A stretch of DNA of 64,000 bases from Gordius albopunctatus (lineage: Eukaryota). Below the pieces are notes generated by a model that saw nothing but the letters and a program-made list of their open reading frames with translations, made no database searches and was not told where the DNA came from. The position numbers and the translations under genes were made by a program. The stretch is taken from positions 20,460,001 through 20,524,000 of the forward strand of contig OZ193909.1 of the NCBI GenBank assembly GCA_964276515.1. The letters run 5' to 3'. The stretch's first letter is position 1; each line of letters begins with the position of its first letter. Below, piece by piece: positions 1 through 40,831 of this stretch.

Positions 1-2505
1 CGAAAGCTCGGGAATTAGGAGAAGGATACAAGCTTTTCTACAGTGGGTCACCAAATCGTAGAAACGGGGTCGGTATCGTTCTAAGCGAATCGTTCAAGGA
101 CAAGGTGGTGGAAGTCAAACGTTGTTCCGACAGGCTGATGTGGGTGAAGATTGCGGATCAAGGGGGCCTCCTAACCGTTATGTGCGCGTATGCTCCCCAA
201 ATTGGGTGTTCGGAATCAGAGAAAGACATATTCTTCGAATCATTGGAAAAGGAAATACAAGGAATCCGACAGGAAGAAAGGCTAATTATTGGGGCCGATT
301 TCAACGCTCACGTAGGGAAAGATCGCCTCGGGTATGAACGCAATCATATAGGCTATGGGCATGGTCTGAAGAACAAAGAAGGGGAAAATCTTCTCCAAGT
401 ATCCCAAGCATATGACATGGCAATCGTTAACACCTATTTTCAAAAGCGCGAAGATCATATTGTGACCTATAGAAGTGGGAAGCATTTTAGTCAAATCGAC
501 TATTTGCTAATACGGCGAAAGGACTTATGGAGTATCAAGGATTGCAAAGTAATACCGGGAGAAGAAATCGCCAGGCAACATCGTCCCCTTGTTATGGATC
601 TTGACAGAAGAGTATTTCCTGAAAGAAGAAAGGTATATGAACCTCGAATTCGATACGAAAGGCTAAAGGATACGTCGACGAACGAAGAATACCATCAAAA
701 AGCCTCCTCACTCTTGGGTGCAAGGAAGTTGCAAAGGGACGTAGACGAAGATTGGGAGACGCTATCTAAGGACATTAAGGAAACAGCGATTCGTGTTCTA
801 GGACAGACCAAAGGAGGCAAAGCTATGAATAGGGAACTATGGTGGTGTGATCAATCGGTTAAAGATTTCATCGAAATAAAGAAAAATCTATATAGACGGT
901 GGCATAAATCAAAAAAGTCGGAGGATTATCAAGAGTACAGGGACGCAAAGAGGGCCGCAAAAAAGGCCGTTGCAAAAGCAAAGAATGCTGGGTACACCGA
1001 GATGGCAAACAAACTGGATCATAAAGGGGGCGATAGGCTTATGTACAAATTGGCCAAGATAAGGGAGAAGAAAATTCGAGATGTCGGAGTTCTTAAAATA
1101 GTCAAAAGCGAGAAGGGTCAAACCTTATTCAAGCCGAAGGAAGTGATGGAAAGGTGGAAAGGATATTTTAAGAAACTTATGAATATTGCAAATGACAAGG
1201 ATTCCCTTCCCGAAATTGAGCCAAATATAAGTATGGTCGAACTCTTTCAGAAGGATGAAGTTAGGACACGAATGAACAAGATGCAAAAAGGACAAGCAAA
1301 TGGCCCAGATGGAATACCTATGGAAGCATTGCTCGGATGTCGTGAGGAAGGAGTCACCACCATGACGAACCTCCTTAATAAGATATTGGTAGAAGAGCGA
1401 ATCCCTAATCAATGGAGAGCAAGCACGATTATACCTTATTCAAAGGCAAAGGAGACCCTCAGGACTGCGGAAATTACAGAGGTATCAAGTTAACTTGCCA
1501 CTCCTTGAAGCTTATGGAAAAGATCTTAGTAACAAGGCTGAAAAACTAAGTGTAAATATCGGCTAATCAATTCGGATTCGTGAACGGCAAATCAACAATC
1601 GATCCAATCTTCCCCCTAAGACAAATGATGTATAAGTATGGTGAAAAGAGGAAATACCTACATATGGTTTTTATCGACTCGGAGAAAGCTTATGACACGG
1701 TCCCCCGCGATTTAATATGGTGGTGCCTGAGGAAACAAAATATCCCTGACGCATATATACGGCTTATGAAAAATATCTATGAAGCCTCAAACTCTTGCGT
1801 TAGGACGACAGTTGGAGACTCTAAACCTTTTCGGGTTAATATTGGATTACATCAAGGCTCTGCTTTAAGTCCCTCTTTATTTAATATAATTATAGACACG
1901 ATAACGAGGGACTTTCAAAAGCCATCACCATGGTGTATGCTATATGCCGATGATATAGTACTATGCGAGGAAACAAGGGAGAAGGTATTCGAAGAAGCAG
2001 AAAAGTGATCAAAGCGCTTAGCTGGATATGGTTTAAAGGTCAACGATCGAAAAACGTTATACATGGAAATGAACGGTACAAGCACCCCATCGCTGGATGA
2101 CCACCTAAAGTACCCAAAAGTAGACAGGTTTACTTACCTCGGCTCTATGCTACATCAAGAGGGAGGTTGTGCAACTGAAATCAATGCCCGGATTCAAAAA
2201 GGATGGCTTAAATGGCGAAGTATATCCGGTGTAATGTGCGACAGGAAAATGCCAATATGGTTGAAGAGCAAAGCTTACAAATCCATCGTAAGACCGGTGT
2301 TACTCTATGGAAGTGAAACATGGGCATTAAACACCACGGAAGGAAAGCTATTACAAGCCACGGAGATGAGAATGATACGGTGGAGCTTGGGGTATACTAA
2401 GCTCGACCATATGACGAATGACTTTCTCATGACAAAAATGGGTATTCAACCTATGGCGGACATGATTAACGAAAATCGGCTAAGGTGGTATGGACATATA
2501 CTAAG
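1..2505 (+). mobile_element. RTE-clade non-LTR retrotransposon (APE endonuclease + RT), degenerate; its 5' part is cut by the window edge
   Basis: ORF 105-1493 has APE motifs (CAYAPQ, GADFNAH, SQIDYLL). ORFs 1580-2008 and 2063-~2505 carry RT motifs (KAYDTV, GLHQGSALSP, YADD, FTYLGS, LLYGSETW, RLRWYGH). Frameshifts and stops lie between them. Confidence 0.93.
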
Positions 2506-2813
2506 TTCCACAGAAAAAATCCTTAAGGAATGCTGGCGGTTTCCGGCTACGTTGTGGGTATCTCGGTTCTTCCCTAGGCGTTCCTGTCTGGTTTTGGCTT
2601 TGTTCCCTTGTCGCACTTGTTACCCTGTTTTGCATTTGTTCCATTGGCGCATTTGTTCCCACTTCCCTTTCTGGTGATATTCTTTGTGGCCACCCGTTCT
2701 CTTGCCCCAGCGTGGTCCAATCTAGGATTTTCCGTTTCCTTACTTGATCCAGGTGTCGGTGGTGCTTTCTTCCCTGTGCCCATACATCGTAGGAACGACT
2801 CCCGTGTTTGGCT

Positions 2814-5800
2814 TTATCGTGCTTCCACACATTTTCTTGGACCCAGGAACATGCGTACCCACACCAAGTCTCCTACGTTGAACATTCGTGGGTTCCCGGT
2901 CTCTACCCATTGTTGCGGTACGGTTTCCCTTAATACCTCCCATTCGGTTCGCATACGCCTTTTTAACATCATCTCTGCCGGGCTTTTATTGGTTGTGTGG
3001 TGTTTTGTCGATCTATAGTTTTCCAGAAATCTATTTATCCCTACTTCCGACTCGTTCCTCATGATGGCTTCTTTCATTAATCGTACGTATCTTTCTGCCA
3101 AACCGTTCGACGCAGGATGGTACGGAGCTGTCCATCGCTGATTAATCCCTCTCATCTTGCAAATGTTTTTTAAATCCTGTCCTTTGAATTGTGGGCCATT
3201 ATCCGATATTAGCCATGGTGGATTTCCAAATCTCGCAAACGTCTCGGCAAGTTTTTTTATAATGGTTGTCGACGTGGTGTCTTCTAACTTAAACACCTCT
3301 ACCCATTTCGAACTATTGTCAACCATCACGAGGTATAATTTACCCTTGAGAGGCCCCATGATATCGATATCTACTTGGACCCATGGTTTTTGGCTAGGTT
3401 GACACTCTATCAACGGTGCCTTCTTCGCCGCCGTGGCCGTGTAATTGCAATTCCGGCATCCTTTCGCTACGCTCAATAAGTCCTCGTCGAGAGTAGGCCA
3501 CCATATATACTGCCGCGCCACTTCTTGCATTCGCTTGATACCCACGTGGCCCCTATGTAGTCTTTGTAGTACCGCTCCTCGTAACTTAGCCGGAATTAAT
3601 ATTCGTCGCCCTTTGTAATATATTATGCTCTTGGCCTCATGCAACTTTGGCAGGTGTTTTTCGTAGGTGCGTTTTAGCCCACCCGTGACCATTGTGTTTT
3701 GTTTACCTTTCATCCACTCTTTTACTTGACGTAGCCCCGGATCCTCCCAGGTGCGTTGTCTTACTACGTCCAATGAAATAAACGGATTCGTCGAGTCTTC
3801 TGGAATTTCTTCGGTAACCTGATACGCGTGTTCGTTCGGTTTCCTGGACAAGAAATCTGCCGCGTTTTCGGCTCCCTTGTTGTACTCGAACTTGGTTGTG
3901 TAGCCTGATACCATGAGCACCCACCTAGTTAGCCGAGGTGACCATTGTTCCTTGCCCTTTTTGCTCTGGTCGAATATATATACTAGCGGTCTATGATCCG
4001 TCATAATAGTTACGCTTCGTCCCTGTATAAATTCATTGAACTTTTTTAGTCCATACACCACCGCCAGAGCCTCTCGTTCGATCGTCGCATACCGGCTTTC
4101 GCTATCGTTTAACGCTCTTGACGCATAGGCCACCACCCTCCAATTCTCTCCTGGTGCTCGTTGCTGTAAGATGGCCCCTAACCCTGTACTAGAGGCGTCT
4201 ACTACCAGCCCCGTCTCCCAATCTCCACTAAAGTACGCCAGTACGGGGGCTTTCGTAAGGGCGGATTTGATAGCTTCAAACGAGCCTTGTTGTTCTCTAC
4301 CCCAGTGGTACAACACATTTTTTTTCATTAGTTTTTGAATCGGGTGTATGATTTTGGCGTAGTCCTTAATGAACTTTGCAAAGTATGCTGTTAACCCCAG
4401 GAAGGATTTTATTTCATTTTCGTTTGTTAAATTTTTCCACTGCTTGACTATTTCGGCTTTATTGTCGTTGATTTGAATCCCACTGTTACTTATTATGTAT
4501 CCCAAAAAGGTTACTTCCTTCGCCCACAAGTTGCTCTTGGTAATGTTTGGCACGAACCCCCACTTTTGTAACGTTTCTAGTACTTTGAGTAACCGCTCGT
4601 TGTGAATTTCTTCCGTTTCCCCTGCAATTAGTATGTCGTCGATGTATACCGCTACCCCCTCCATGCCTCCTAATATTTGGTCCATTGTTTTTTGGAAAAT
4701 AGCCGCGGCACAATTTAAACCAAACGGCATCCGGTTAACCTTGAATAAGCCCTTGTAAGTCGAGATCGTCAACCGTTGGCTCGTCTCTGGTCCTAATTCA
4801 AGCTGTAAGTACGCTTTCGTGAGGTCTAGCTTCGTACAATAACACGCGTTATCGAGTTTATTTAACAAATCGTCGATTTTGGGTAAGGGGTACATCAACC
4901 CTTGTGCGTATTTATTTATCGTAAACCGGTAGTCTATACATAATCGCAGAGTCCCATCGCTTTTTTTCACGGGTACCACTGGGCTGGCCCATCTAGAGAA
5001 ATCGATTGGTTCTATCACCCCGTCTCTGACCCATTTATTCAGTTCTTCTTCTATTTCTTTCTTCCACGCCATCGTCACTCTTCGCGCGGGGATAAATACG
5101 GGATCTATGCCCTCTTTTACCGGTACTTCCACCGTTATTCCCTTGACTGCTTGCGGGAATTCGTTTCGCTGGCCCTCCCATCGCTTCATCACGTGCTGTA
5201 TCGCTAACTTGATATCCTTCGGTCTTTCCACGTAATTGACCGCGAACCATTCCGCCGCTGTTCTCGAGTTCCAACGCATTTGACGCCATACTTCGGGTTC
5301 GAATTCTTGTATCCAATCGATCCCGCATAGCGGCGGCCCCGCTACATCTGCTAGCAATAACGACAGCTGTTTCCTCGTGTAACCCAATCGGACATCGGCT
5401 TGTACCTTGGCTACGATCTTTATTTCCCCGTGGCCGTAGGCGTACACCGTCGGGACGGCCTCTTTGTTGCGTGGGATCTCCTTCGCCCATCTTTGCGCTG
5501 GTAATATCGAAACCGTAGCGCCGGTATCGACGATAAATTGGAACAATTCGTTATTAATATATATATCAACTGTTAACACATCTAAAGCATGGTTTAACCT
5601 GGGAATCCGGACCGGCCCAGGCCACGCTTCTCGTCTCGCAACTACGCTCCACGCCTCTTCGCCCCCGTCCTGCAAGGTGCTTAGCCCGCCATTTATCGTG
5701 TCGGCCGTTACTGCCAGCTCCCGTAGGCGGTCCCATTTGATGTCATTTTCTGCCAACAGTCTCGCTTGTAAGCTTCTATCGCGCAATCCTATAATGGATT

Positions 5801-6173
5801 GGTCGACGATTCTGCTCTGCACTTCTTCATTTCCGAAGTTGCAGCTATTAGCCCCGGCCTTGAGTCTATTAGCGTACGTGTCTATCGTCTCTCCCTAGCC
5901 TTGTCGGAGCTTTGAGAATTCGTACCTCTTTGCCCTCGTACATGAATTTCTCTGGAATAATTTCCTTAATCGATTTTTCGCTTCTTCGTATGTAATTCCT
6001 GTCAACTCTTGCGGTCTATAACCCTCTAGTATTAATTGGAATGCATCCCCCTCGAGGCTGGTTAATAATAGCGCGGCATTTTGTTCATCTGTCTCCGTCT
6101 TATTGTTCCTAAGGAATAACTCAAATTGGGTTAAGAAAGCGTCGATGTTAGCCGTTGTTTTATATTTCTGCAT
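2814..6173 (-). pseudogene. Gypsy gag-pol polyprotein with one in-frame TAG (5895-5897) in gag
   Basis: ORFs 5895-6173 and 2814-5822 are in the same frame. Motifs: VDTGA protease, YIDD RT, VDAS/TDHRPL RNase H, HHCC zinc finger and DDE integrase (VDIDI, SDNGPQF, NGLAER). Confidence 0.9.
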
Positions 6174-6182
6174 CTCCGCGTA

Positions 6183-6202
6183 GGATCCTACTCACGACGC
6201 CA
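6183..6202 (-). promoter_or_regulatory. Primer-binding site of Gypsy copy 1
   Basis: Minus-strand TGGCGTCGTGAGTAGGATCC lies 1 nt inside the LTR end; the cognate tRNA was not identified. Confidence 0.7.
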
Positions 6203-6203
6203 C

Positions 6204-6440
6204 TGTTAAGGGCTGATATTTATTCACGTAAACTATTAGGGGTGTGATACAAAAAAAACGACTACAACCACAAGTGTCCTGGCGTATATATCCAACGCCT
6301 TTATATGTTACAACCAATTAACGATAATTTGATCGCCAACGCGCGTGTAAATAACATCAAATTTGATCGCCAACGCGCGTGTAAATAACATCAACACGCA
6401 GGTAACTATCGTATCCCTGGAGGCACTTTACCTCTCTACA
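6204..6440 (-). repeat. 5' LTR of Gypsy copy 1, with an internal ~34-bp tandem duplication
   Basis: TGTTAAG...CTCTCTACA ends; homologous to 9901-10108; AATTTGATCGCCAACGCGCGTGTAAATAACATCA occurs twice at ~6326-6393. Confidence 0.85.
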
Positions 6441-6498
6441 AAAACAAACCCCACCAATGTGGGACCAAATGACTGATAAAGAAGAAGAAGAAGAAGAG
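6441..6498 (+). mobile_element. 3' terminus and (GAA)n tail of the interrupted RTE
   Basis: CCAATGTGGGACCAAATGACTGATAAA(GAA)n; a near-identical end occurs inverted at ~59986-60035. Confidence 0.75.
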
Positions 6499-6991: not shown

Positions 6992-7796
6992 TAGTGATGA
7001 TCAAAACATAGGTCAGGTTTTCCCGAGGTTCAACCTCAGGTCGGTTTTAGGTTCTGGCGTTCTAAAACCTGGCAAGGTTTTTGAACACCCGAACCTTAAC
7101 CTGAGGTTGATCCCAAAAATCAACCTGAAAAACCTTCAGGTCAATTTTATCCCCAACCTGAAACCCAGGTTGACCTCAGGTTAACCTGATAAAAATCTCT
7201 TGTTTTATGCGATAAATTTAAGAATAAATTTTTATTTTACTTTAACTATTTTCCTTTTTCAAGATGCGTCAAACCTTTTAAATATTTACAATTTTAAATG
7301 AACAAAAAATGGTTTTTGGTTATTATTTAAAAAAAATAAGATTTTTTTATATAAAAACTTAATTAATTGTTAAACATGTATATTACTCGATGACGCCATC
7401 TATATGTTTATAAATTTTGATAAACATATCCTATACAAGTTTAACAATTAATTAAATTTTTATATAAAAAAATCTTATTTTTTTTTAAATAATAACCAAA
7501 AACTATTTTTTCTTCATTTAAAATTGTAAATATTTAAAAAAGTTTGACGCATCTTGAAAAAGGAAAATAGTTTAAGTAAAATAAAAATTTATTCTTAAAT
7601 TTATCGCATAAAACAAGAGATTTTTATCAGGTTAACCTGAGGTCAACCTGGGTTTCAGGTTGGGGATAAAATTGACCTGAAGGTTTTTCAGGTTGATTTT
7701 CGGGATCAACCTCAGGTTAAGGCTTGCCAGGTTTTTGAACGCCCCAACCTGAACCTTCAGGTTGCCTGATCAAAACCTAGGTTTTGATCATCACTA
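6992..7796. mobile_element. Fold-back non-autonomous hAT element (MITE)
   Basis: TIR TAGTGATGATCAAAAC...GTTTTGATCATCACTA; 8-bp TSD CCTAGAAC (6984-6991, 7797-7804); internal arms ~7094-7380 and ~7433-7722 are near-perfect inverted copies. Confidence 0.88.
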
Positions 7797-8719
7797 CCTA
7801 GAACTGTCAGCTGAGGGTTCCAAAGGACGTGGAAAAGCCTTGGAAGCGAAGGGCCATTCATCACGGAATTGGCGCGGGAAAATGGGTCAGAAAGAAAAGA
7901 AGTTTCAAGGATAAGGATACAGGCCAAGAAAATCAAAAACCTAAATAAGTTCCAGCAAAATCGATACTCCAGAGAAAAATAGGATTTTCTCCCGTAGAAT
8001 GAGAATTTCTCCATTGTAAACCCAATCCCCCCCCCCCCCTGTAATCGCTAGAAATTATATTCCTGCGCTATTATTGTCTTGTTAACAATTATTGCCGAAT
8101 ACTTCAATTATATATCGTGTCCGGAATTGTATCATAGTTATTTGAGTGAATAAACTAGTATTTGGAGTATCACAGATTTGGTGAATAATCGTACAAATAA
8201 ATAATCCCCAGACTAGAAACCAATAAATAATTCCCCCCCCCCTTTGGTCGGAGGATGTAAAAATTATATTTGGTAAAATTTGTATATATACAGAATAGAT
8301 AACATAAATATTAGTAGTCAACAATGCTCATTGCTTAATTATGTTTAAAATTGGCAATGTAATCACAATATTTATAACAATTAATATATATAAGAAATCA
8401 ATTACTATAACTATACTATATAAACATAAAATAAAAGCCTAAGTCACTTACTAGAAATACCATATTTTAAAGAGGAAAAAATCTTGTATACAAACTCTCT
8501 TCATAATTTACAATCAATGGTGGAAGTCGAAAATTAAATTCTAAATATTGAATGTATATATTATGTTTCTAGACTTTTATACGTGTCTCAAAATCTTTTA
8601 TGCAACTAAACTATAATATTTTAACCCATTTAATCTAATTATTAAACAAAAAAAAATCCAAATTTTGGTCAAGGGGCCAGAAACATCCCACTTTCTGCCC
8701 CCTTGGCTACGCGCCTGCA

Positions 8720-9900
8720 TTTAGTGATCAGCTACTTCAAGTAGGTTCTCCATGTATTCCTGCACTTACACCAGCTTCGCTTTGGCTCGTACCTTCTTAA
8801 GTCCATATCTATTTTATGCTTCCATGTCAGCTTAGGTCTCCCTCTCTTTCGCTTACCTTCGACTTGCACTTTCTTGATACGATTTGCCAAGTGACTTTCC
8901 TCCCGTCTGTCCAAATGGCCATACCATCTCAATCTTCTTACCACCAACTTTTTCTGAATCGGAACTACATTTAGTTTATCCCTTATGTCTTGATTTCTTA
9001 TATGGTCCTTTTTGCTTATTCCGTAGATCCATATCAACATTCGTATCTCCATTGTAGCTAAGCTTTGCTCCTCTTTTGCCTTAATTGCCCAGGTTTCCGC
9101 TCCATACAATACCGTGGGTACAATAACGGTGTTATATAACCTTCTTTTCAATTTTAGTGTTATGTGCTTGTCACATAGGACACCACTCAACTCCCTGAAT
9201 TTTAGTCAGCCTGCGTTTATTCTTGCCTTAATTTTGTTTTCCACACCTCCATCACATTGTAGCCTAGAGCCAAGATATTTAAATTCTTTCCTGGTGCTTA
9301 AACACCAGTCATCTATTTGCAGGTGTGTTTCTCTGTATTCATTCCTGACTCCGAGCATACATATTCAGTTTTATTTCAGTTGACCCTAAGGCCTTTGCTT
9401 TCAATTCGTTCCATCCACACTTTTACCTGCTCTGCTAATTCCAAGTTTGAGCATGCGCACAGGACGATATCATCCGCAAAGAGCATTGCCCAAGGTGATC
9501 CGCGTTTCAGGTCCTTCTTTATCGAATCCATTATTGTTATGAAGAGCAATGGACATAGGGTCGATCCTTGATGCACACTAATATTTAGACTGAATCCCTT
9601 TGATGTACCACTGGATGTCCGAACTTTGGTTTTTGCGTTTCTATACATATCCTTTATTAACATTATATAAGCGTCGGGTACACCATTGGAACTCAGGCAA
9701 TCCCATATCAACTGCCTTGGCACTTTATCGAAAGCTTTTTTAAGATCGATGAAACTCATATGAAGATCCTTTTGTTTTTCCCTATATAATTCTATAAGTC
9801 TCCTAAGACCATGTATTGCATCTGAAGTCGACTTTCCAGGCATCAACTCAAATTTTCGTTCATCTATTGATATTATTTTTCGGAGTCTAGCTTCTATAAC
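8720..9900 (-). mobile_element. Second RTE-clade LINE fragment (RT C-terminal half), a different subfamily
   Basis: ORFs 9376-9846 (FIDLKKAFDKV, HQGSTLCP, FADD) and 8732-9190 (VLYGAETW, RLRWYGH, RKRGRPK). Confidence 0.9.
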
Positions 9901-12578
9901 TGTTGAAGGGCTGGATCTTTATTCACATAAACTATTAGGACTGGGATACAATAATCGAAAAAGTGACCATCACCGTATATAACAAACGAATATATAAGTT
10001 ACAACCAATTAACGATAATTTGATCGACAACTCGCAGGTCAATAACGTAAAAACGCCGGTAACTAACGTATCCCCGGAGGCACTTCGCACTCCTATTACC
10101 TCTCTACAGTTCCCCCCTTTTCTCAGACAAAATCCTTAAGGAATGCTGGCGGTTTCCGGCTACGCTGTGGGTATCTCAGTTCTTCCCTAGGTGTTCCTGC
10201 CTGGTTTTGGCTTTGTTTCCTTGTCGCACTTGTTCCCCTGTTTTGCATTTGTTCCCTTGGCGCATTTGTTCCCTCTTCCCTTTCTGATGATATTCTTTGT
10301 GTGGCCACCCGTTCTCTTGTCCCAGCGTGGTCCAATCCAGGATTCTCCGTTTCCTTACTTAATCCAGGTGTCGGTGGTGCTTTCTTCCCTGTGTCCATAC
10401 ATCGTAGGAACGACTCCCCTGTTTGGCTTTTATCGTGCCTTCTACCCATTTGCTTGGACCCAGGAACATGCGTACCCAAACCAAGGCTTCTACGTTGAAC
10501 ATTCGTGGGTTCCCGGTCTCTACCCATTGTTTTGGTACAGTTTCCCTTAATACCTCCCATTCGGTTCGCATACGCCTTTTTAACATCATCTCTGCCGGGC
10601 TTTTATTGTTTGCGGAGTGTTTTGTCGATCTATAGTTTTCCAGAAATCTATTTATCCCTACTTCCGACTCGTTCCTCATGATGGCTTCTTTCATTAATCG
10701 TACGTATCTTTCTGCCAAACCGTTCGACGCAGGATGGTACGGAGCTGTCCATCGCTGATTAATCCCTCTCATCTTGCAAATGTTTTGTAAATCCTGTCCT
10801 TTGAATTGTGGGCCATTATCTGATATTAGCCATGGTGGATTTATAAATCTCGCAAACGTCTCGGCAAGTTTTTTTATAATGGTTGTCGATGTGGTGTCTT
10901 CTAACTTAAACACCTCTACCCATTTCGAACTATTGTCCACCATCACGAGGTATTATTTACCCTTGAGAGGCCCCATGATATCGATATGTACTTGGACCCA
11001 TGGTTTTTGGCTAGGTTGACACTCTATCAACGGTGCCTTCTTCGCCGCCGTGGCCGTGTAATTGCAATTCCGGCATCCTTTCGCTACGCTCAATAAGTCC
11101 TCGTCGAGAGTAGGCCACCATATATACTGCCGCGCCACTTCTTGCATTCGCTTGATACCCACGTGGCCCCTATGTAGTCTTTGTAGTACCGCTCCTCGTA
11201 ACTTAGCCGGAATTAATATTCGTCGCCCTTTGTAATATATTATGCTCTTGGCCTCATGCAACTTTGGCAGGTGTTTTTCGTAGGTGCGTTTTAGCCCACC
11301 CGTGACCATTGTGTTTTGTTTACCTTTAATCCACTCTTTTACTTGACGTAGCCCCGGATCCTCCCAGGTGCGTTGTCTTACTACGTCCAATGAAATAAAC
11401 GGATTCGTCGAGTCTTCTGGGATTTCCTCGGTAACCTGATACGCGTGTTCGTTCTGTTTCCTGGACAAGAAATCTGCCGCGTTTTCGGCTCCCTTGTTGT
11501 ACTCGAACCTGGTCGTGTAGCCTGATACCATGGGCGCCCACCTAGTTAGACGAGGTGACCATTGTTCCTTGCCCTTTTTGCTCTGATAAAATATATATAC
11601 TAGCGGTCTATGATCCGTCATAATAGTTACGCTTCGTCCCTGTATAAATTCATTGAACTTTTTTAGTCCATACACCACCGCCAGAGCCTCTCGTTCGATC
11701 GTCGCATACCGGCTTTCGCTATCGTTTAACGCTCTTGACGCATAGGCCACCACCCTCCAATTCTCCCCTGGTGCTCGTTGCTGTAAGATGGCCCCTAACC
11801 CTGTACCAGAGGCGTCTACGACCAGGCCAGTCTCCCAATCTCCATTAAAGTACGCCAGTACGGGGCCTTTCGTAAGTGCGGACTTGATAGCTTCAAATGC
11901 GCCTTGTTCTCCCCCCAGTGGTACACCACATTTTTTTTCATTCGTTTCTGAATCGGGTGCACAATTTTGCCGTAGTCCTTAATGAACTTTGAAAAGTATG
12001 CTGTTAACCCCAGGAAGGATTTTATTTCATTTTCGTTTGTTAAATTTTTCCACTGCTTGACTATTTCGGCTTTATTGTCGTTGATTTGAATCCCACTGTT
12101 ACTTATTACGTATCCCAAAAAGGTTACTTCCTTCGCCCACAAGTTGCTCTTGGCAATGTTTGGCACGAACCCCCACTTTTGTAACGTTTCTAGTACTTTG
12201 AGTAACCGCCCATTGTGAATTTTTTCCGTTTCCCCTGCAATTAGTATGTCGTCGATGTATACCGCTACCCCCTCCATGCCTCCTAATATTTGGTCCATTG
12301 TTTTTGGAAAATAGCCGCGGCACAATTTAAACCAAACGGCATCCGGTTAACCTTGAATAAGCCCTTGTGCGTCGAGATCGTCAATTGTTGGCTCGTCTCT
12401 GGCCCTAATTCCAGCTGTAAGTACGCTTTCGTAAGGTCCAGCTTCGTAAAATAACACGCGTTGTCGAGTTTATTTAACAAATTGTCGATTTTGGGTAAGG
12501 GGTACAGCAATCCTTGTGCGTATTTATTTATCGTAAACCGGTAGTCTATACATAATCGCAGAGTCCCATCGCTTTTTT
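9901..12578 (-). mobile_element. Ty3/Gypsy copy 2 (3' LTR, PPT and RT-RH-INT; 5' half lost)
   Basis: LTR 9901-10108 (TG..CA); polypurine tract AAAAGGGGGGAAC at ~10109-10121; internal region highly similar to ~2515-4967 but with frameshifts and stops. Confidence 0.92.
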
Positions 12579-13375: not shown

Positions 13376-13640
13376 TTAGGTCTTGTCTTAATATCGGATT
13401 CAGATTCAAATGGCGCGAATTTATCTTTATCAAATATCCGATTTGATTTCACGTGTCAAACTCGGTTTTAATTATTAATATTTAGTTTTTTGATAATTAA
13501 AACCGTTTTTTAGTTCATTTCAACTCTTGAGATGAATCGCTGTTATATTATGCGTCTGAAATGTAAATCTGCTGCTGTGAATTCGAAGTTAAGACACGGC
13601 AATGTTATAACCCGTGCAACGATTTTTACAAGCCCTTAGG
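13376..13640. mobile_element. Non-autonomous DNA element with a related inverted copy at ~18628-18985
   Basis: Shared blocks ATCGGATTCAGATTCAAAT, CACGTGTCAAACT and GTAAATCTGCTGCTGTGAATTCGAAGTTAAGACAC; CTTAGG at both ends. Confidence 0.55.
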
Positions 13641-14403: not shown

Positions 14404-14698
14404 TATATTATGAGCTCTATCCGAATGCTCATGCACGGAGGAAACGGTTATAATTATTTTACTTAATTCAAAGTAAACCTCTTATAAATGAAATAGATGG
14501 GAGGACACTTTGTTTCAATAGCGAGTGACCTTCAAATGGATTAGTATATTTAAATTTATCAATATTTTTGCAATGTTTTGTTTTATAATTATGAATCGAC
14601 CATTAGACTAAATGACATTTTATATAAATTGGAATTTATAAAAATTATGGGTAAAATTTTATAGAATCATCATTTAGCTCTTTCCTATTTATCCAATC

Positions 14699-15032
14699 AT
14701 AGCTGTTAGGCATCTATGATTGGACCTGTGGGTTCCGACAGGGCATGCCCTGTTATCCCCCACAGCGTTTATTAGTAATATACTCATAAACAAAAATAAC
14801 TACAGGCAAGCAAAGTGTAAAGTACTAAGTTATGAACGACGAGCGAGGTGTGACATGAATCATGCGAAGAAGGAGAAGTGGCGCGCGCGTCGATAAATGT
14901 AATAGATACAACAGCTGGTGGCGAAAATTTATATATACTTGTAAGGAATAAATGGGAGAAAAGGTGTTATAAGGTAAAACGTATAACGCGAAAATTCCAA
15001 AGAGCGTTGGTTTAGTCAGCGGTTTTCCTTTT
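14699..15032. repeat. Left arm of the 334-bp terminal inverted repeat
   Basis: Reverse complement of 17868-18201; no mismatch seen by eye. Confidence 0.95.
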
Positions 15033-15052
15033 ATAGGTGCGTATGATAGTGC
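14925..15052. repeat. 128-bp direct repeat, 3' copy
   Basis: Identical by eye to 17694-17821. Confidence 0.95.
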
Positions 15053-15184
15053 GTGCAAGGGTTTAGTTCTGTTCTACACCTTCATTTATGGAAATTTCGC
15101 CTCCAGCCCAAGTTGACCAATCAAAGAGGTCCTCTTCTTCGAAAACGTCTGGGATGGTTTCGCTCTCAGGTGGCTCTCCCGATA

Positions 15185-17097
15185 CTATGGATGGGACGGT
15201 GTATCTTTCAGGGGGGAGCCAGGTGCGTGATGGATAGTCGGCCGGGTTTTCTTCCGTCGGTATCCACTTAATATTGTACCTTATGGCCAGCAGGGCATTG
15301 AGCCCGTACTCCTTTACGAACCGTGAAATGAGTTCCTCGATAATTGGAGAGTTTGACCCCCCCCTTCATCAGGACGTAGTATGCGGTTGTCGAGTCGGTG
15401 CGGATCCTTGGGAAGGGGGTTCCTCCGAATCTAGCGACCAGGTACCCGTATATTGCTCCCAACGTTTCGCACAATGTGATGTGGGGATCCGGGGGGAGCG
15501 TGAAATTGAGTGCCGCGTCCTCGAACGTAATGGACAAGTTGCTGGTTCCCCATGTTATGCCGATGTGTTCGCTCGATGCGTCGGTGTAGACGGTTAGGTC
15601 CGGGGGAACGTATAATGGGATTCGTTGTCTCAGGGATGTAATTATGGCAAGGAGCTTGAAGCAGGCATGGTTCATGTTGAATAGCCTTGACCGGTCTGAT
15701 AAGTACGCGTAGAAGGGAGCTAGAAGCTTTGACATACCTGTCAGGTTGTATAGGAAGTAGTTGAGCACTCCCAGTGCTTCCAGTAGGATTTGGGTGGGTG
15801 GTGGTGTGTTAGTCGCAAAGGCGAAGAATAGTATGTCAGCCGCGTATTCTAGTCTGGTGATCACCTGTGGGGTGCATCTGATCGAGTGGTCGATGAATGA
15901 TAGGTTTAGGCCCAGGTACTCGATGTCGCGTGTGGGAAGAATTGAGGATTTTCGTGCGTTTATCGTCAACCCCCACTCCGAGGCTAGAGTGAACATGGAT
16001 TCTAGATCCTCTTGTACGTCTGCGTGTGTGTCTCCATATATCAGGATGTCGTCTAAATAGACGTTGTATTTGCACTTGCGTACTGCCTTTTTGGTGAGAT
16101 CAGATACAACCATTTGTAGGACGTATGGGGAGTAGGACGCTCCCATGGGTAGAACCTTGTATCTGTATTTACGTGTTTTATATGTATAGGCGGCGAATTT
16201 GCGGGCCGATACGTTTAGCGGGATGCTGAAGAAGGCAGCTTTTAGGTCGATTTTGGCGACCCAATTTGCTCTGCTCAGCTGTCTAGATGTAAGGGGGATG
16301 GATGCCAGTTTGACCGGGTAGTGTATGTAATTTTTAGATACCTGAGAGAGGTCCGTAATTACCCTGGCATCCCCGTTGGTTTTTGGAATAAAGAATGTTG
16401 CCGATTTTATTATTTCTTTCTCCGTTACTTCCACGACGTCTGCGTCGACCATTGTCTGAAAGTATTCCGGTTTTACTCTCGATATGGCTTTTCTCCGGGA
16501 TGTGAGGAATATGCCATTATGTTCCCGAATTTTGTTCATATCGAATCTCGGGGTGAATCCCTTCCGGGCTATCCGCCTTGTGAATGGGGATTGAGAATGA
16601 TGTGGCCGAAGTTTTGAGGTGGAAATGTCTAGCTGACCGGTGGGAGATGGGAGCTGGGGCTCTTTATTCCACCGGAAAATAGATTTGTGGAGGCCAAAAA
16701 TGGGAAGCGTTTCCGATCCCATTTCCCGACCGAAGGCGGCCTCCACCTGTTGTATACGCTGTTCGACTTCAGGGGCAAGAAAGAATATATTGGAATAATC
16801 CATATTTGTAGGCAATTGGATCGCTCCCGTCGCCCCTGACGGGAGTTCAGATGGGGAAAAGATCCAGCGGCGCGTCTCCCTTATTTGGAAAATAATGCGT
16901 GCGAGCCAGCGAGGGGACCTGGATGTGTTTCCCTTATCGAGAAGCGATACGCCCGAGGGCCCGACTTTCCAGGATCCTGCCAGAGCCTTAATTCTGCGCC
17001 TTACTCCTGGCAGAGGCCGGCGTCTTTTTGACGTGGCGGCTCTTTGGGAGGCTTCTGCCTCTGCCAGCGCCAGGAAATAACTGCCTTCTTGGCTGGA
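15185..17097 (-). CDS. Reverse transcriptase-RNase H polymerase; one frameshift in a G8 run at 15357-15364
   Basis: Motifs FFIPK..RVITDLSQVSK, IDLKAAFFSIPL, LPMGASYSPY, YLDD, IEYLG, VYTDAS, HITLCE and RTDS. Removing one G restores KWIPTEENPADYPSR and a stop at 15185-15187. The frame is stop-free up to 17097; the first ATG is at 16803. Confidence 0.88.
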
Positions 17098-17674
17098 CTA
17101 CCTCCAGGTTAGGGATATTCCAGTCTTCTGCGAATGACTTGTCGTTCCTGATTGCTGTGGCCCAATTGAAATTGATTGCCGTAGCGAGTGTCGTGAGGCG
17201 CGCTGTGGTTTCTTTAAGTAAGGCTTCAGGGGATTCCTCTGATAAGGTTTCCGCGACCAGGAATATGTATTGACTCTCTTTCCTGTCTCTTTGTGAGACC
17301 TTGGTCGGGAATTGTGCCATGAGATCTTTCAACTTGTTGATTTTATCTTCGATCTCTTTTAGCTTCTCCGCCGGGGTCTTTTGGACCGGTTCCGGCTGTA
17401 CTATGTTTATAGCGGGCGGAGGAGCGGCTCTTTGGACATTAAGTTGTTGGATGAGGGTGGCAATTGTTTGCTGTGACTGGTTGAATTGTGCTTGTGCCCT
17501 CCTATTTTGGTCCGCTATGACCCTTAGGACTTCTGTCATGTCCGGGGGGTCTTCCCCCCTACCCGACGGAGTTGGAGAGCCGTCCCTAGATGAGCTCTCT
17601 TCATGTGGAGGGGGTTTTAACGCCGGGAAAGGCTGCGCCGCAGGTGTCACGGGGTTTCGTGCTGGTCTTACCAT
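16988..17674 (-). CDS. ORF1, gag/core-like nucleic-acid-binding protein (228 aa)
   Basis: Intact ATG ORF upstream of pol; Pro-rich N-terminus, predicted coiled-coil/helical middle, Arg/Lys-rich C-terminal tail; no CCHC knuckle. Confidence 0.75.
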   Translation of the reverse strand: MVRPARNPVTPAAQPFPALKPPPHEESSSRDGSPTPSGRGEDPPDMTEVLRVIADQNRRAQAQFNQSQQTIATLIQQLNVQRAAPPPAINIVQPEPVQKTPAEKLKEIEDKINKLKDLMAQFPTKVSQRDRKESQYIFLVAETLSEESPEALLKETTARLTTLATAINFNWATAIRNDKSFAEDWNIPNLEVVQPRRQLFPGAGRGRSLPKSRHVKKTPASARSKAQN

Positions 17675-17693
17675 ATTTCTCCTGAAAATTTAT

Positions 17694-17821
17694 AAATTTA
17701 TATATACTTGTAAGGAATAAATGGGAGAAAAGGTGTTATAAGGTAAAACGTATAACGCGAAAATTCCAAAGAGCGTTGGTTTAGTCAGCGGTTTTCCTTT
17801 TATAGGTGCGTATGATAGTGC
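17694..17821 (-). promoter_or_regulatory. 128-bp direct repeat, 5' copy, containing a TATA-like box
   Basis: Minus-strand CCTATAAAAGG lies about 125 nt upstream of the ORF1 ATG. Confidence 0.6.
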
Positions 17822-17867
17822 ATTTAAGCCATCCTTTTTGAATCCGGGCATTGATTTCAGTTGCGCA

Positions 17868-18201
17868 AAAAGGAAAACCGCTGACTAAACCAACGCTCTT
17901 TGGAATTTTCGCGTTATACGTTTTACCTTATAACACCTTTTCTCCCATTTATTCCTTACAAGTATATATAAATTTTCGCCACCAGCTGTTGTATCTATTA
18001 CATTTATCGACGCGCGCGCCACTTCTCCTTCTTCGCATGATTCATGTCACACCTCGCTCGTCGTTCATAACTTAGTACTTTACACTTTGCTTGCCTGTAG
18101 TTATTTTTGTTTATGAGTATATTACTAATAAACGCTGTGGGGGATAACAGGGCATGCCCTGTCGGAACCCACAGGTCCAATCATAGATGCCTAACAGCTA
18201 T
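17868..18201. repeat. Right arm of the 334-bp terminal inverted repeat
   Basis: Reverse complement of 14699-15032. Confidence 0.95.
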
Positions 18202-21197
18202 TAAACACGACAAGCATGGATAATTACCAATTTTTAAATAAAACTTAGCATTTTCTTCAAAATACTTTGCACCATGATTAAAAATACTTAGCATAACGAA
18301 TTTAGCATTTTTTGATAAAATACTTAGCATTTTCAATAAAAAAACTGGTGATAATTTATTTTTACTTGGCATTGAAATAGCAAACGAAACACCCATGAAT
18401 AAATAGCATTTTTTACATAAACTTCCGCAAAGATAAGACTGCAAACTTTAAATCTAAATATTTTCCTTTAAATATTATAAAACATTTCACAAATTCTAAA
18501 CATAAATTTAACTATTTAAAGAAAATACCTATATCACAAGTATCCACTGCAATTATTACTAAATTAAGAAGTCGGACAAGACAGACAGGGCGGATGGCTA
18601 ACTAAAGGTGAGAGTTCATTAAATTGCCTAAGGACCTTTCTTAATATCGGATTTTGTTGCGCGCCAAAAATCGTCGTGCGGGTTATAACATAGCCCCGTG
18701 TCTTAACTTCGAATTCACAGCAGCAGATTTACATTCCTGACGCATGACGACAGCGCCAGCGATTTTGAAAGATGCAACATTTTATGTCTTTAACTTTTTA
18801 GGTGTAACAACAGCAAAGTTTAGATTTAATCTCAGTAGAGTTTAAATAAACAAAAAGAAACGTTTTAAACTATCAAAAAACAAATTATTAATAATTAAAA
18901 CAGAGTTTGACACGTGAAATTGAATCATCGGATATTTAGACAAAGATCAATGAGCACGATTTGAATCTGAATCCGATGCCCTAAGAATTAATAATATTTA
19001 TAAGAAATCGCGAGCGCCAGGTTGACAAATACCACGGACACAAGCGTGTATTTGCTAAGCGGGGGGGCAGGGTTTTGTGGAAGGTAATGGCTAAATAATC
19101 AATAATTTCGTTTTTGTCGCACTAAACCAGTAGTTGTAGAGATTAGCTGATATCAAATGCCTCCTTCAAAATTTCTTCTAAATATTTATTAGAAAAAAGG
19201 AATTAATTTTTAAATTCGCTCTTTATTTATCCAATATGTGGTCTAAATATTTTTGCTAGATCTACTAAAAAGGAATATGATGAATTTCAATGTAAGTTTT
19301 ATTATAAAATTTGATTTATTTTAATATTTTTTGATATTTTTAATTTTTTAAATATTTTTATTCGAAATAAAATAAATTTCATAGTTTATATTTTAAAATT
19401 TATAGCAAAATGTAAGTTTTATTATAATAATTTGATTTTTATATGTTTTCTATTTATTTATGTTAAATATAAATAGAATTTTATTTTTTTTTTTATTTCA
19501 AAATTTATGACAAATGATGATATTTATATACAAATATTTATTTAAAAGGAAGATTTATATTGTTTTTTATTTTAGATGGCTTTATTAACCTTTTTTATGA
19601 GTTATAAATAAATTAATCACATAAATGGAAATCAACTAAATTAGAATTAAATAAAATTCAAGGATGTTTTATATTTTGTATAAATTGAGTTTTTAATTTT
19701 TATTTCAAAATTAATAACATTTCAAGATGTTTATGGTCAAGTATTTATTAAAAAGAAAGATTTAAATTGTATTTTTATTCTTTTAGATTGCTTTAACTCT
19801 TTTATGAGCTATAAATTAAAAAAAAACACAAAAAAAGCCATTAACTAAATTAAAAATTAAATAAAATCTAATCATAAAAGCTTTAAAGGCTTAATATTTA
19901 AAAATTTAATTTTCTAAATTAAATATATTAAAAAATTTATATATTTTTAAAAATAATTTAATTAAATAAATGGGATGCGTGTTTAAACATAACTTGAATT
20001 TAAGTGATTGTCAATTAGTGTGATTGAGAAAGGCCATTTTCCTATTTTTATTTAATTTAATTTGGTCAATCAACCATTTTTTGTTTTTTACAAAATTTTA
20101 AATTTAGATTGTAAAATAAAGATTTAATATTTGTAAAAATGAAAAACCACTTGAATGTTTCACAATTTTTATTGTTTTGATTTTATATAATAAATATTTT
20201 TTGAGCAAAAATGTTAGAAATGTTTTATTAAATTGAAATTTTTTAAACAAAATTATAATTCTTTAATTTAATTTGTAAAATACAATTTTTATATATAAAA
20301 ATGGAAAGCCACTTAAATATTTCTTAATTTTTATTATTTTAGATATTTATAAAAGGAATATTTCTTGAGAAACAATGTTAAAATGTTTTAATAAATTGAA
20401 AATAACGATTTTCAGCTCCATTTAAGATCTAGAACATCTTGATTGATTAAATATTTTGACATTTGGTGACATAAAAATGAAAGAAATCTGAAAAAAATAT
20501 TTTTAATCAATTAAAAATCGATAAATCTCTATTTTTTATTTTATTTTATATTTATTTGCTATTGTATTTTTGAAAAAAAATAAAAATTTTACAATTTAAA
20601 AATTTAATTTAATCATTTTTTTGTACTTGTTTTTATCATTTTTTGTTAATGAATAAAAAAAATCGTTTTCGTGATACAATTATAAGCTTATCGATTTGTT
20701 GCTTAAAAATAAAATTACAAAGATGACAAAATAAATAATTTAATTATTAATTTTAGTTAAGCTTCGAGTTTAAAATTAATTAAGATTGTTATTTAAATGC
20801 TAAGCAAGAAATAACAAAATGCCAAGTATTTTATGCTAAGTTTTTTTTACTGAAAATTCCAAATATTTTATTGAAAAACGCTAAGATCTTTATGCTAGGA
20901 AGAATTAAAAACTTAGCGAAATTGGTTAAAAAACTTATCAATCACGAATAAAACTTTGTAATTAAGAGAAACTGAGAATTAAAATTAATTTTTTTTATTT
21001 TAATTAATAATTTATAAAAAAAAATATATAATTTTGTCAAAAATTATAAAAACAATTATTTTAAATTTAAGTATTTTTATAATAGACCTTTTAGATAGTA
21101 TATAATATTTTAATTTCCTTAAAGAGCTATTAAATGATAGCTATTAAACTAAAGGTAATTAAAGAAAAAATCGATATAATGTTTAACCTATTATTCC

Positions 21198-36883: not shown

Positions 36884-39325
36884 TCAATCGATCCTTTCAT
36901 AAAAATAGAGGTAAGCCAAATTTAGGGGAGGATTTTCCGATAGCGCCACGCGTTCATCGTTGTATATGACCCATTTACCATCTTTAAGTACGTGGGCCAC
37001 GTAATGACCGGAAGTCAGGGTGTTACCCATATGACTAACACATCCTACCAATTTGTACACCGGGGCGCCGGTGTCAAGATTGCTAACATTTGAGCCACCC
37101 GTCAGGCCTTGTAAAACTCCATTCGAATTCAGATTAGCCTCAAGGAGTGGATTACCGCTATTCACGGTTTGACTGGGATTGTCAGCCAAGAACAGCTGTT
37201 CTTGACGACTAAACAACCAATCAACGGCTCGCTCTACGTTATTAGACGTAGCTCGTAAAGCTTGTATTGCCTGTTCTCTGGAAAACCCCATGTCCAAAAT
37301 GGCGGCACAATGTTCTTCGCTAACGATAATTTCCGGTTTATCAGCTGTCACATGAGGATCCTCCATAAGGTCATCGTCCAAATGGCGAAGTATCCAGTTG
37401 GATGCCTCTTCCACGGATGCGTTTCCCGTCTTTGCCAGCCCGCGCTCGCATTGGAGATCGGTAAAGCCCATATCCTTTAACTGGAGCAGGAATTGGGGGT
37501 TGGGAGTAAATTGTTGACCTTGTGGAAACAACTCGCTCTCATCTCCCATTAACTGCTCGTCCGACTGAGGCCCACGAGCTACGTATTGTGCCAAATCCAA
37601 GATGGAAGGCACGTCTGTAATCATGGCATCCAGCTTGCTGGGTAACCATTGATCGACGCAATCTTCTAGGACATACCTCTTTACGTGAAACAGAAGATAT
37701 TTGGGAAATGTGGACAATCGATTGGTCTTGACCACTTGCGTATCGTAGCCAATCGTCAAATCACCGCAACATTTTATGGTTTCCGGCACGAAATGGTGCT
37801 TCAAAACGTCGTTAAAAGGAATCCTGGCAAACACCTTATCATCTCCGCCACCCTTTTGTTTACCCTTTTCGGCCACATACTTCTCGTATTCTTCTCTGTT
37901 GGTCGCTTTATCGAGCGGCAGGGTTAGGGAAATGTGATTTTCCACCTTTTTGGTGTACTTGCATCTATTGGTTGACAGGCATTGCCACCTCTCTTCGATG
38001 CACATGTCAAAAAATTTGGACGGTGGAGCTTTGTTGTAATTATTCACTTCCATTTGATTCATGAAATGCATAAAAAATTCGTGAGCATCTTGTTGGTGAT
38101 TGTTCCTAAATTCGGCGTAACATTTCTTAATCATCAAATTAAAAAGTTTTGCTTCAATGCCATTATGACTTGTGCTATCATCTGATGTTGGTGGAATGGA
38201 ATATTTACCACTTAGAAGACCGTAGGAAATTTTACAAGTTTGGAAGTTGTAATTATCCATGGGATTTTTTAAATTATTCAACATTTTTTGGGTACAATCA
38301 TCATAAAAATATTGCTGAAATGCGGGTAAAGAAAATACAACTTGTACTATGGATGAAATGTAACAAGTATTGCCCAAATTATGTAACCCAGTGTACCCCT
38401 TCCCATAGATTGGAGTTAATTTTTGGGATGTTTCTTGTATAGCAGCCCATTCTTTATAATTTTTGTTCATTTCAATTTCAAGTTCTGAAATTGTTTTATC
38501 AGTTTTTTCCAAATTTTCAACATTAATTCCAAAATGCAACAAGTGTTGAGCAAGATTAGGATCTTCAACCATGTCATTTTCATCATATGAATATACATCT
38601 GCTCCTCCATGTTTAGTTATTGTTCCAATTTTAACAGCAAGAGGATATTTCAAAGCATCATAATGTTCTAGAGCATGATTATTACCACCTGTGCCATCAA
38701 AATTTTTCCTTCCACATAAAATTGTACCATCTGTTAAGTTTAGCCATAAATTTTCTTTAATATTACACTTTTGACAGCTGGCATTTAGTAAATTTACCTT
38801 AGGTGGATTAGGCAATTGCATGAGATTATCGTTTTTAGTAATAGGCCGTGTCTCACCATCCCAAGCAAATTTTTTAATTTCCAAATCCAATTGCTTTATA
38901 ACTGATTCACATTTAATTATGCTATTAATGGAATTCATGATAAATTGTGGAATATTAGAGTTATGAATAGATATTGTGTTAAAATCAGGCAGTATTATTA
39001 ATTTGTAGTGTTCCAAATACTTGCTTTTTTTATCAACCTGAAAACCCCCATCAACTCCAATAGCCATTTTTTGTACTTTTTCTTTTGGTTCTTCCTCCTC
39101 ATTTAACTTTTCTTGCAGAATATTAAGGTAGATTGATCTGCCTGTAGTCTTGTAATAATCAAGCATATGAAGTTTGTCAAATCCATAAAAAGTCTCCAGA
39201 CAAACGTATAAACCATCATTCATATCAGGCGTATCAAAGCACATCAAGCACTCATCCTTAAAAACACATGATTTTTCAATATCAGCTATCTTAACAATGT
39301 TTTCATATTTGAGAAAATCACACAT
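36884..39325 (-). CDS. USP5: Ubiquitin carboxyl-terminal hydrolase 5/13 (isopeptidase T), single exon, 813 aa
   Basis: ZnF-UBP (NLWLNLTDG.ILCGR..GGNNHA), Cys box GLHNLGNTCY, QQDAHEF, two UBA domains (DMGF), His box HMG..SGHYVAH. Confidence 0.95.
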   Translation of the reverse strand: MCDFLKYENIVKIADIEKSCVFKDECLMCFDTPDMNDGLYVCLETFYGFDKLHMLDYYKTTGRSIYLNILQEKLNEEEEPKEKVQKMAIGVDGGFQVDKKSKYLEHYKLIILPDFNTISIHNSNIPQFIMNSINSIIKCESVIKQLDLEIKKFAWDGETRPITKNDNLMQLPNPPKVNLLNASCQKCNIKENLWLNLTDGTILCGRKNFDGTGGNNHALEHYDALKYPLAVKIGTITKHGGADVYSYDENDMVEDPNLAQHLLHFGINVENLEKTDKTISELEIEMNKNYKEWAAIQETSQKLTPIYGKGYTGLHNLGNTCYISSIVQVVFSLPAFQQYFYDDCTQKMLNNLKNPMDNYNFQTCKISYGLLSGKYSIPPTSDDSTSHNGIEAKLFNLMIKKCYAEFRNNHQQDAHEFFMHFMNQMEVNNYNKAPPSKFFDMCIEERWQCLSTNRCKYTKKVENHISLTLPLDKATNREEYEKYVAEKGKQKGGGDDKVFARIPFNDVLKHHFVPETIKCCGDLTIGYDTQVVKTNRLSTFPKYLLFHVKRYVLEDCVDQWLPSKLDAMITDVPSILDLAQYVARGPQSDEQLMGDESELFPQGQQFTPNPQFLLQLKDMGFTDLQCERGLAKTGNASVEEASNWILRHLDDDLMEDPHVTADKPEIIVSEEHCAAILDMGFSREQAIQALRATSNNVERAVDWLFSRQEQLFLADNPSQTVNSGNPLLEANLNSNGVLQGLTGGSNVSNLDTGAPVYKLVGCVSHMGNTLTSGHYVAHVLKDGKWVIYNDERVALSENPPLNLAYLYFYERID

Positions 39326-40831
39326 TAAAATGGTTTACAAATCTCACGAATGAATGTTCGTCATATGTTTTTTACACGATGATCACTATACATTTTTGAA
39401 GATAAGGTAAGAAGGGTTAAGTTTAAACCAGGAGTGTTAAAGTAAATATTAGGATTAAAATTGCGATAAAGTTATAACATGGTTAATTAGAAAAAAAAGT
39501 AAAATGAGAATTTTAAACAGGCTTATTAATAGATTTACAAATCATGCAATACATTGAACTACTTAGGTTTTGGATTATTAGGAAGTCTAATAAAATTCTA
39601 ATCATATTTATACTATTAATCTTAAAACTATGTGCCTAATCCTTATTAAATATTAATTTGGTTTTTTAAATTATAAATATGGAATGTATCTTCTATATTT
39701 GATTCTAATCACTATATTTTTTCATATTTCAAACAAATGCAGTATATTGCTTCAAGGGCATAATCCCGAATTTTAAGGCTACATTGGTCTCTAACATTTT
39801 TTATAAAAAAATTGACATTACTCAAATTGTATAGGAAAATTTTTTTAACATATAATCAAGAAAACTTGGATAGATTTATTACAAGTGCAGGCAACCAAAT
39901 ATATTTCAATGCCCAAAAATATCATCTGTACTTAAAAATCAACATTGTATGGTTACAACTGAGAATCGTATTTAAAATAACATACTGTATTTCGCATCAT
40001 AAAAACTGAAATATTTCAAATAGGAAAAGTTTTAAACTTATTGAAAATATCTCAGAGGGTCAACAGGGTAATAGCTTTTGAAATATTTTCTTAAAAAATA
40101 TACATTTTCTTCTGGTTTAACTATATTTGCATTTTTATTAAACTCATCAAATATTACATACATCTATTTAATGCTAATGAGAAGACCCTTTCGGGATTGT
40201 TTTATTTAATATCCAATTACAAGAGCAAGTGTCTTTTGAGAAAAATAAGTGCGTTTATATAATCGCGTATTAATTGAATAAACAATTAAATTTGTGTCGA
40301 GGTATAAATAAATCAATTTAGTGGTGTCTCCGCCAGGTATGCTTGATTGGTCAATTAACGTCGTGAAGTAGTAAGGTAATGTAAATGAGACAATTAAGTC
40401 AATTGACGCAACAACCCCTTCTCAGGGGGTGGAGGATACCACAATTATTTTAAATTTTAGAGAATGCAGCCCCCCCTGTCAAACCCTGGCTACGCCAATG
40501 TTATTAGGTAAATAAATGAATATTAATTTTAGCTTTACTCAGTAGTTTGATTTTGGATTAATAATGTTTTATAGCCCCTGCCCTACAGTTCATTTAAAAT
40601 TTCCAACATTTTCTAACTTTTTTCTCCACTTCACTAACGCTTTATAATACACCGGTCCCATGCTGAATTTAATGGATAAATAAATTTTGAATTTAAACTC
40701 AATTGTTTCTTCCTATACTTCCCTTATAGGTATTAATTAATTTGGGATAGACGCGAGGGGGGAACGATGAAGAATAAAAAGAGGGTCTTGAATTATAGTG
40801 TAATTCTTAAACTCTTTTACGGTTTTAGCGT

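Follow-up and report, generated by a model that had tools for sequence, protein, structure and literature searches.

A 48-nt piece of an RTE LINE lies at the joint between the two head-to-head parts of a retroelement in a 64,000-nt window of the Gordius albopunctatus genome, the window being the whole stretch of DNA that was analyzed. On balance, this piece is probably the product of a one-off chance capture, through a template jump or as end-joining filler, at the meeting point of two cDNAs that were primed on opposite sides of a chromosome break. The original prediction had interpreted it as a template-switch or priming scar; a template-switch or repair scar is indeed the likeliest origin, whereas the location at an inner joint and not at a priming end speaks against a regular primer. 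The element itself was found to be a reverse transcriptase (RT)-RNase H retroelement, for whose family no description was found in the open literature, and which is apparently undescribed.

Architecture of the element

The element spans positions 14689-18201 and carries ORF1 and an RT-RNase H on the minus strand. Read in element sense, the order is right flank, a 334-nt antisense copy of the element's 3' end, the RTE piece, direct repeat D, ORF1, pol, a second D, a spacer of ~150 nt, a double hairpin, and the left flank. Both flanks thus join the 3' hairpin end of the element, which is complete on the left (14689) and 10 nt short on the right (18201). The left part of the insertion reaches up to the 5' repeat at full length; on the right lies a 5'-truncated inverted copy, and the RTE piece joins the two head-to-head.

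The 5' copy of D (17694-17821, minus strand, 128 nt) is 100% identical to the 3' copy (14925-15052, minus strand), which begins 10 nt past the pol stop and has a TATA box, right after pol (TATAAAA at 15029-15035, and at 17798-17804 in the 5' copy). Repeat to repeat, the unit measures 2,769 nt. The 5' copy carries 17 nt upstream of its own TATA box as well as TATATATA at 17699-17706, and it is devoid of the last 236 nt of the element; the fold of D has a z-score of ~0. Downstream of the 3' copy follow the 3' spacer (14774-14924, minus strand), also present in diverged family copies that are ~89-91% alike, and the terminal double hairpin (14689-14773, minus strand, 85 nt, z -5.4), which is preceded by AATAAA at 14768-14773. 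The inverted arm (17868-18201, plus strand, 334 nt) is 100% identical to the reverse complement of 14699-15032, ending 10 nt short of the terminus and cutting through the TATA box.

Within the element interior, no 10-mer matched the terminal region 14680-14780 as an internal complementary region (ICR) would. Repeats resembling DR1/DR2 were not found either, 10-mer repeats being no more frequent than in shuffles and absent near the element ends, and neither Rfam (nothing near the gathering score) nor the core pattern gave a hammerhead ribozyme. A scan of viral contigs with the terminal hairpin pattern remained without match. A solo LTR within 14751-14916 was considered and dropped, no target-site duplication (TSD), PBS, or PPT being visible by eye. 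Where the 5' repeat ends on its inner side (17680-17700), an 8-nt tandem duplication is followed by TTTTCAG, which resembles an acceptor site and lies 7 nt ahead of the start of ORF1.

Several further features of the window were recorded. The element is flanked by an inverted pair of diverged repeats (13393-13627 and 18666-18977; 83-90%), which is older and not part of it, and a foldback element with 264-nt arms lies at 7094-7722. A USP5 gene (36884-39334) consists of one uninterrupted frame of 816 codons; its closest protein by local identity is from Gordionus, with 57% over the first half vs. 40-42% to other animals. Together with the Gordionus relatives of pol described below, this makes a nematomorph host likely.

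The RTE-derived piece and its possible donors

The match that had first drawn attention to this locus was borne out: 17821-17864 is identical in 44 of 44 positions to the reverse complement of 2171-2214, and extension to 17868 gives 47/48 against 2167-2214 (blastn E 4.9e-17 within the window). The sole mismatch lies at 17865, with 17866-17868 matching again, and is synonymous in the RTE frame (TGT/TGC, Cys). The RTE portion may possibly end at 17864, with 17865-17867 being self-templated. In the RTE ORF, the counterpart of the piece lies directly past the RT core (CATEINARIQKGWLK). Within the element and beside it, 17821-17868 is the only RTE match, and no RTE was found in the 1.6 kb checked on each side.

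The location of the piece was confirmed as well: it reads in RTE sense along the minus strand and is bordered by the direct repeat (128 nt) on one side and the inverted arm (334 nt) on the other. It shares one base with each neighbor (17821 and 17868), leaving 17822-17867 unique to it. This microhomology of 1 nt at each of the two RTE junctions would arise by chance at roughly one junction in four and hence marks no pairing step. The two flanks showed no target-site duplication, as they share no 2-15-mer with either choice of the left boundary. Its running in the same sense as the element's transcript had been put forward as an argument, which is uninformative in a head-to-head structure: the opposite arm is antisense, so that the piece would continue one of the two cDNAs in whichever orientation it lay.

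The matching stretch (2167-2214, plus strand) belongs to a decayed RTE LINE (1-2506, plus strand) with stops and frame breaks, one of very many copies, which is cut off by a gypsy element. A LINE 3' end, consisting of a stem-loop and subsequent AAG repeats, lies directly after the gypsy 5' LTR (6440-6498, plus strand) and is probably the tail of this RTE. Neither element end carries AAG repeats, and alignment of the ends to this presumed tail scored at chance level. RTE sequence makes up about 6% of the window, and RTE depth over the piece in two public DNA runs (X1 and X2, see below) amounted to ~2,000-4,400x that of the single-copy flanks, a rough value inflated by overlapping contigs that still corresponds to roughly thousand-fold or more. 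Because of this abundance, a random foreign fragment would often be RTE. Compared by eye with the majority letters of the RTE contigs from both runs, the window copy agreed at 58 of 60 neighboring positions, and the chance of a 44-nt exact match from another RTE copy was estimated at 0.10-0.41. In a family this abundant and homogeneous, a near-exact match to 2167-2214 does not make that copy the donor. The local copy, 15.6 kb away, was therefore dropped as a necessary source, since any sister copy or RTE RNA could serve; the donor was likely one of the numerous RTE copies, or RNA made from them. The synonymous mismatch fits a sister copy, which would give such a change.

Both gypsy copies of the window adjoin RTE LINEs. 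At 1-6498, gypsy interrupts the RTE, with the gypsy 3' LTR and the 3' part of the RTE deleted at ~2506 and the LINE tail resuming after the 5' LTR at 6440; at 8600-12578, a second copy of that gypsy (96%) lies against a different RTE family on the minus strand.

Coding capacity and placement of the reverse transcriptase

ORF1 (16988-17674, minus strand, 228 aa) encodes a helical protein of no known family, probably in gag/core position, and overlaps the pol frame. Neither Pfam, the Atlas (best 0.78), nor fold comparison assigned it to a family, and its single-sequence model matched generic helical bundles only. The pol frame (15268-16803, minus strand) comprises the RT (Pfam RVT_1, 2e-28) and the start of RNase H, and is broken near 15360 in this copy; the RNase H end and an acidic tail are found in another frame (15063-15365, minus strand), which matches Gordionus proteins and is followed by no methyltransferase (MT), tyrosine recombinase (YR), or integrase. 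The claim that the element possesses neither endonuclease nor integrase held up: of the 24 listed frames of at least 60 aa, all seven of at least 100 aa were scanned, and they returned RVT_1 only, with no integrase, recombinase, or endonuclease. No ORF for a tyrosine recombinase was found, nor is there room for one after pol. An ORF for GIY-YIG or any other nuclease is equally missing from the element, the RT being of the LTR/DIRS class with RNase H. A terminal-protein domain before the RT gave no Pfam match, and the model of residues 1-170 stayed under pLDDT 50. Modeled as a whole, pol gave a structure of low confidence (pLDDT 48.5) that resembled every LTR-class RT equally well.

Among 1.84 billion representatives, three relatives of pol were found at E < 1e-30, all of them from Gordionus and with the catalytic motifs of RT-RNase H kept; homologue searches by word index missed these relatives. 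For an RT tree, 28 sequences were picked by hand from 161 matches with a long enough core and combined with the query. In this 29-row tree, which holds no labelled HEART sequence, the element groups with Gordionus (99/97), and both fall into a wider group with three unnamed proteins (93/90, unstarred), separate from the DIRS-like rows that carry MT and YR. Two of these three proteins have weak matches to DNA_pol_viral_C, the hepadnaviral RNase H. A quick tree of 68 rows, with long branches and again no labelled HEART sequence, agreed (97 SH-aLRT). In the Atlas ranking, hepadnavirus P clusters (0.92) came slightly below DIRS-like clusters (0.93-0.94). Taken from these protein comparisons, we tentatively place the element with hepadna-like RT-RNase H proteins rather than with DIRS, the placement being tentative because the trees contain no labelled HEART sequence and because the Atlas puts DIRS-like clusters slightly higher.

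Scans of viral contigs gave nothing for the single protein or for query A1, and one distant locus (23%) for query A2. A metagenome scan yielded 11 loci of 25-37% identity. Among those, L011 has a palindrome resembling the joint of the element and was rejected because it belongs to a gypsy locus whose insert is unrelated; L001 turned out to be gypsy and L008 VIPER/TATE-like, and the remaining eight loci were checked for ORFs and repeats. L008 (1-4517) is a circular or tandem contig with a recombinase-like ORF, which has no match in Pfam, RT-RNase H, and a gag-like ORF in VIPER/TATE order. The unnamed RT-RNase H proteins P0172, P0220, and P0151 (contigs of 2.6-3.6 kb) have weak hepadnaviral RNase H matches and are candidates for HEART- or proto-nackednavirus-like elements.

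Copies of the element in public DNA runs

The public DNA runs X1 and X2 come from a single study and are possibly not independent of the window. No part of the element is left uncovered by their contigs, in which most copies are 88-95% alike. Some diverged contigs extend from the hairpin across the spacer to D (X1 records 3-5, X2 records 11-12; joint 14773-14917), so that the 3' end belongs to the family. Depth is low at 17522-17672, and few copies seem to keep the 5' end. The hairpin is far more abundant on its own and breaks off sharply at 14773, where the flanks of 11 and 10 contigs are unlike; as a short repeat with fixed ends, it may have arisen as a non-autonomous derivative or as a MITE, or else mark a preferred target.

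The outer junction at 18201/18202 was found in contigs of X1 and X2 with zero differences. Neither run gave an empty allele, the flank contigs continuing unbroken into both element ends. No contig bridging 17821 or 17868 occurs among those listed from the two runs, and both RTE junctions consequently rest on the window assembly. For the region 14670-15110, 161 and 72 contigs were collected, among which the 5' spacer of every copy would appear as a loose end behind 15052 or 15032. Among the 12 of 52 rows listed, one-contig rows included, there is no such loose end. If the rows are ranked by contig number, no spacer is common to several contigs, a weak result because few copies keep their 5' end and because the junction of this very copy is not among the rows listed.

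Origin of the RTE-derived piece

According to the capture model that we favor, the two ends of a chromosome break would each prime, or be joined to, a cDNA begun at the 3' end of the element. One reverse transcriptase, either the element's own or that of a LINE, would run off the 5' end and jump onto broken RTE RNA; alternatively, a short RTE cDNA or DNA could act as end-joining filler. The two cDNAs would then be ligated through the captured RTE fragment. The lack of flanking RTE, of a TSD, and of an RTE tail at the element ends is consistent with such a capture, as is the origin of the piece from the middle of an ORF. Parallels exist among non-canonical LINE-1 insertions and 5' chimeras: in the accessible text of PMC11702581, an insertion made by L1 contains two parts of a single mRNA in inverted orientation, with separate reverse-transcribed pieces at the junction between them, and that of PMC13174262 reports 5' chimeras with many other RNAs. 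These cases resemble the present insertion in having a foreign reverse-transcribed fragment, either where two inverted parts meet or at the 5' end, and little microhomology. Unlike them, the present insertion has a second copy of the 3' end as its inverted part, a cargo with its own LTR-class RT, and LINE sequence as the captured piece, and it shows neither TSD nor poly(A). Cutting and extension of both DNA strands in vitro are described in the available part of PMC11167929. The capture model builds on the 5' junction of one copy. Moreover, the 17 nt upstream of the TATA box cannot come from a simple transcript, so that an extra strand transfer or a read-through template is needed. To our knowledge, there is no case of priming on chromosome ends for the RT class of this element.

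Alternatively, though rather unlikely, arm, spacer, and direct repeat could be the regular 5' end of the family, rebuilt in the manner of DIRS-1, with the RTE piece caught once in an ancestor and inherited as a loop. The transcript would start in the arm (TATATATA at 17963-17970), the cDNA 3' end would pair with its own 5' part and copy it, and the resulting hairpin-ended panhandle would be inserted by host repair. Such a fold-back would explain the sequence upstream of TATA in the 5' repeat, the 100% identity of the arms, and the longer 3' arm; according to the accessible text of PMC7192593, DIRS-1 does use its right repeat to restore the left one, and its cDNA is linear and single-stranded. 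The element shares with the DIRS-1-like YR retrotransposons described there an ORF1 overlapping RT-RNase H and inverted terminal repeats of unequal length (334 nt, 100%, in this copy only). A diverged contig that joins ORF1, the putative gag, to a 5' D (joint 17517-17768) fits this reading as well. So would the depths of diverged 3'-spacer contigs in X2 (170 and 209 vs. ~80 for this copy), which would suit two arms in other copies, whereas those in X1 (331-588 vs. 450-620 for the interior) fit one arm and do not indicate two. Against a regular fold-back stand the missing ICR and recombinase and the absence of an opposite-strand joint at 15032/15052 among the 12 of 52 rows listed. Inheritance from an ancestor is furthermore at odds with a piece that, being still 47/48 like RTE, is young. 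Having neither tyrosine recombinase, methyltransferase, nor ICR, and standing apart from the MT/YR-bearing matches in the tree, the element is not a DIRS element.

It is quite unlikely that the RTE protein mobilizes the element in trans, a route proposed in the original prediction, by which the RTE endonuclease would cut and the RTE RT would copy element RNA from both DNA ends before jumping to its own RNA. The idea draws on the missing nuclease, on flanks that both join 3' ends and thus show target-priming polarity, on the plentiful copies consisting of the 3' end only, and on the abundance and homogeneity of RTE; LINE RTs also make such chimeras, as described in the available text of PMC13174262 and PMC11702581. 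The element ends, however, show no TSD, no AAG tail, and an RTE-tail alignment at chance level, the piece stems from mid-ORF, and a terminal direct repeat is not a product of target-primed reverse transcription (TPRT). The element moreover has its own RT-RNase H, with catalytic motifs kept in the Gordionus relatives, and the 12 of 52 loose-end rows listed include no recurrent RTE spacer. This last result, together with the location of the piece at an inner joint, also speaks against cellular RNA fragments as a regular primer or bridge, as had been suggested.

That the scrap is old target DNA, an isolated RTE crumb at the empty site with element copies added on both sides, appears very improbable. 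Given the abundance of RTE such crumbs exist, but the 1.6 kb on either side hold no RTE, which equally contradicts the proposal that the element targets RTE DNA. This scenario furthermore requires that breaks occurred at two sites separated by 46 nt and that both were filled by identical sequence, its 5' ends directed toward the crumb, and in X1 and X2 the flank contigs run unbroken into the element ends with no empty allele there. Least probable of all is that arm and spacer form a fold-back chimera from library amplification or assembly. Such chimeras do take the shape of a perfect inverted duplication around a short loop, and neither RTE junction is among the contigs listed from X1 and X2. 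The right outer junction recurs, however, in two runs with zero differences, and identical arm contigs in X1 reach a depth of 935-1135, about twice the 450-620 of the interior of this copy.

Relation to known systems and significance

In its DNA structure, the element resembles Penelope-like elements (PLE), for which the accessible texts of PMC3846280 and PMC8557442 describe two direct repeats and one inverted repeat with a tail. In both, an ORF lies between two direct repeats with a TATA box, an inverted copy truncated at its 5' end is found next to them, one end carries a short extension, and many copies consist of the 3' end only. Unlike Penelope, the element has a separate ORF1 along with an RT of the LTR/DIRS/hepadna class that comes with RNase H; it has neither GIY-YIG nor hammerhead (the latter being absent in Naiads too), and its 5' direct repeat is not a full copy of the 3' end. 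The available part of the Gordionus genome preprint reports no Penelope in that genome. The element is thus built like a Penelope-type or twin-primed insertion, but by its proteins it is not a PLE.

With HEART and the proto-nackednaviruses (accessible parts of PMC12691608 and PMC12440569) it has in common hepadna-like RT-RNase H motifs, the absence of a detectable integrase, TATA right after pol, and a unit of 2,769 nt from repeat to repeat. It differs from them in that no terminal-protein domain, DR1/DR2, or epsilon was detected and that ORF1 has no core fold match. DR1/DR2 and epsilon, listed as features of Blubervirales in the available text of PMC12691608, were not found in the element, which is known here from DNA contigs alone. 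The accessible part of its supplements names no sequence from Gordionus or Nematomorpha. HEART mobilization is called unresolved in the text available from PMC12440569.

Captured fragments at the joints of retro-insertions are already known, and the RTE piece is probably incidental. The element matters more than the scrap, representing a young, multi-copy, nuclease-free RT-RNase H element with intact ends, whose relatives were found here in horsehair worms only. If it is of HEART grade, its junctions bear on the choice among break repair, DIRS-like fold-back, and LINE borrowing. Unlikely, although conceivable, is that a nematomorph lineage of HEART grade would routinely insert by both break ends priming on hairpin-ended RNA, with RTE protein or RNA as cutter or bridge and the RTE scar as the footprint. 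If true, this would be the first mechanism for integrase-less relatives of hepadnaviruses, converging on a Penelope-like insertion structure.
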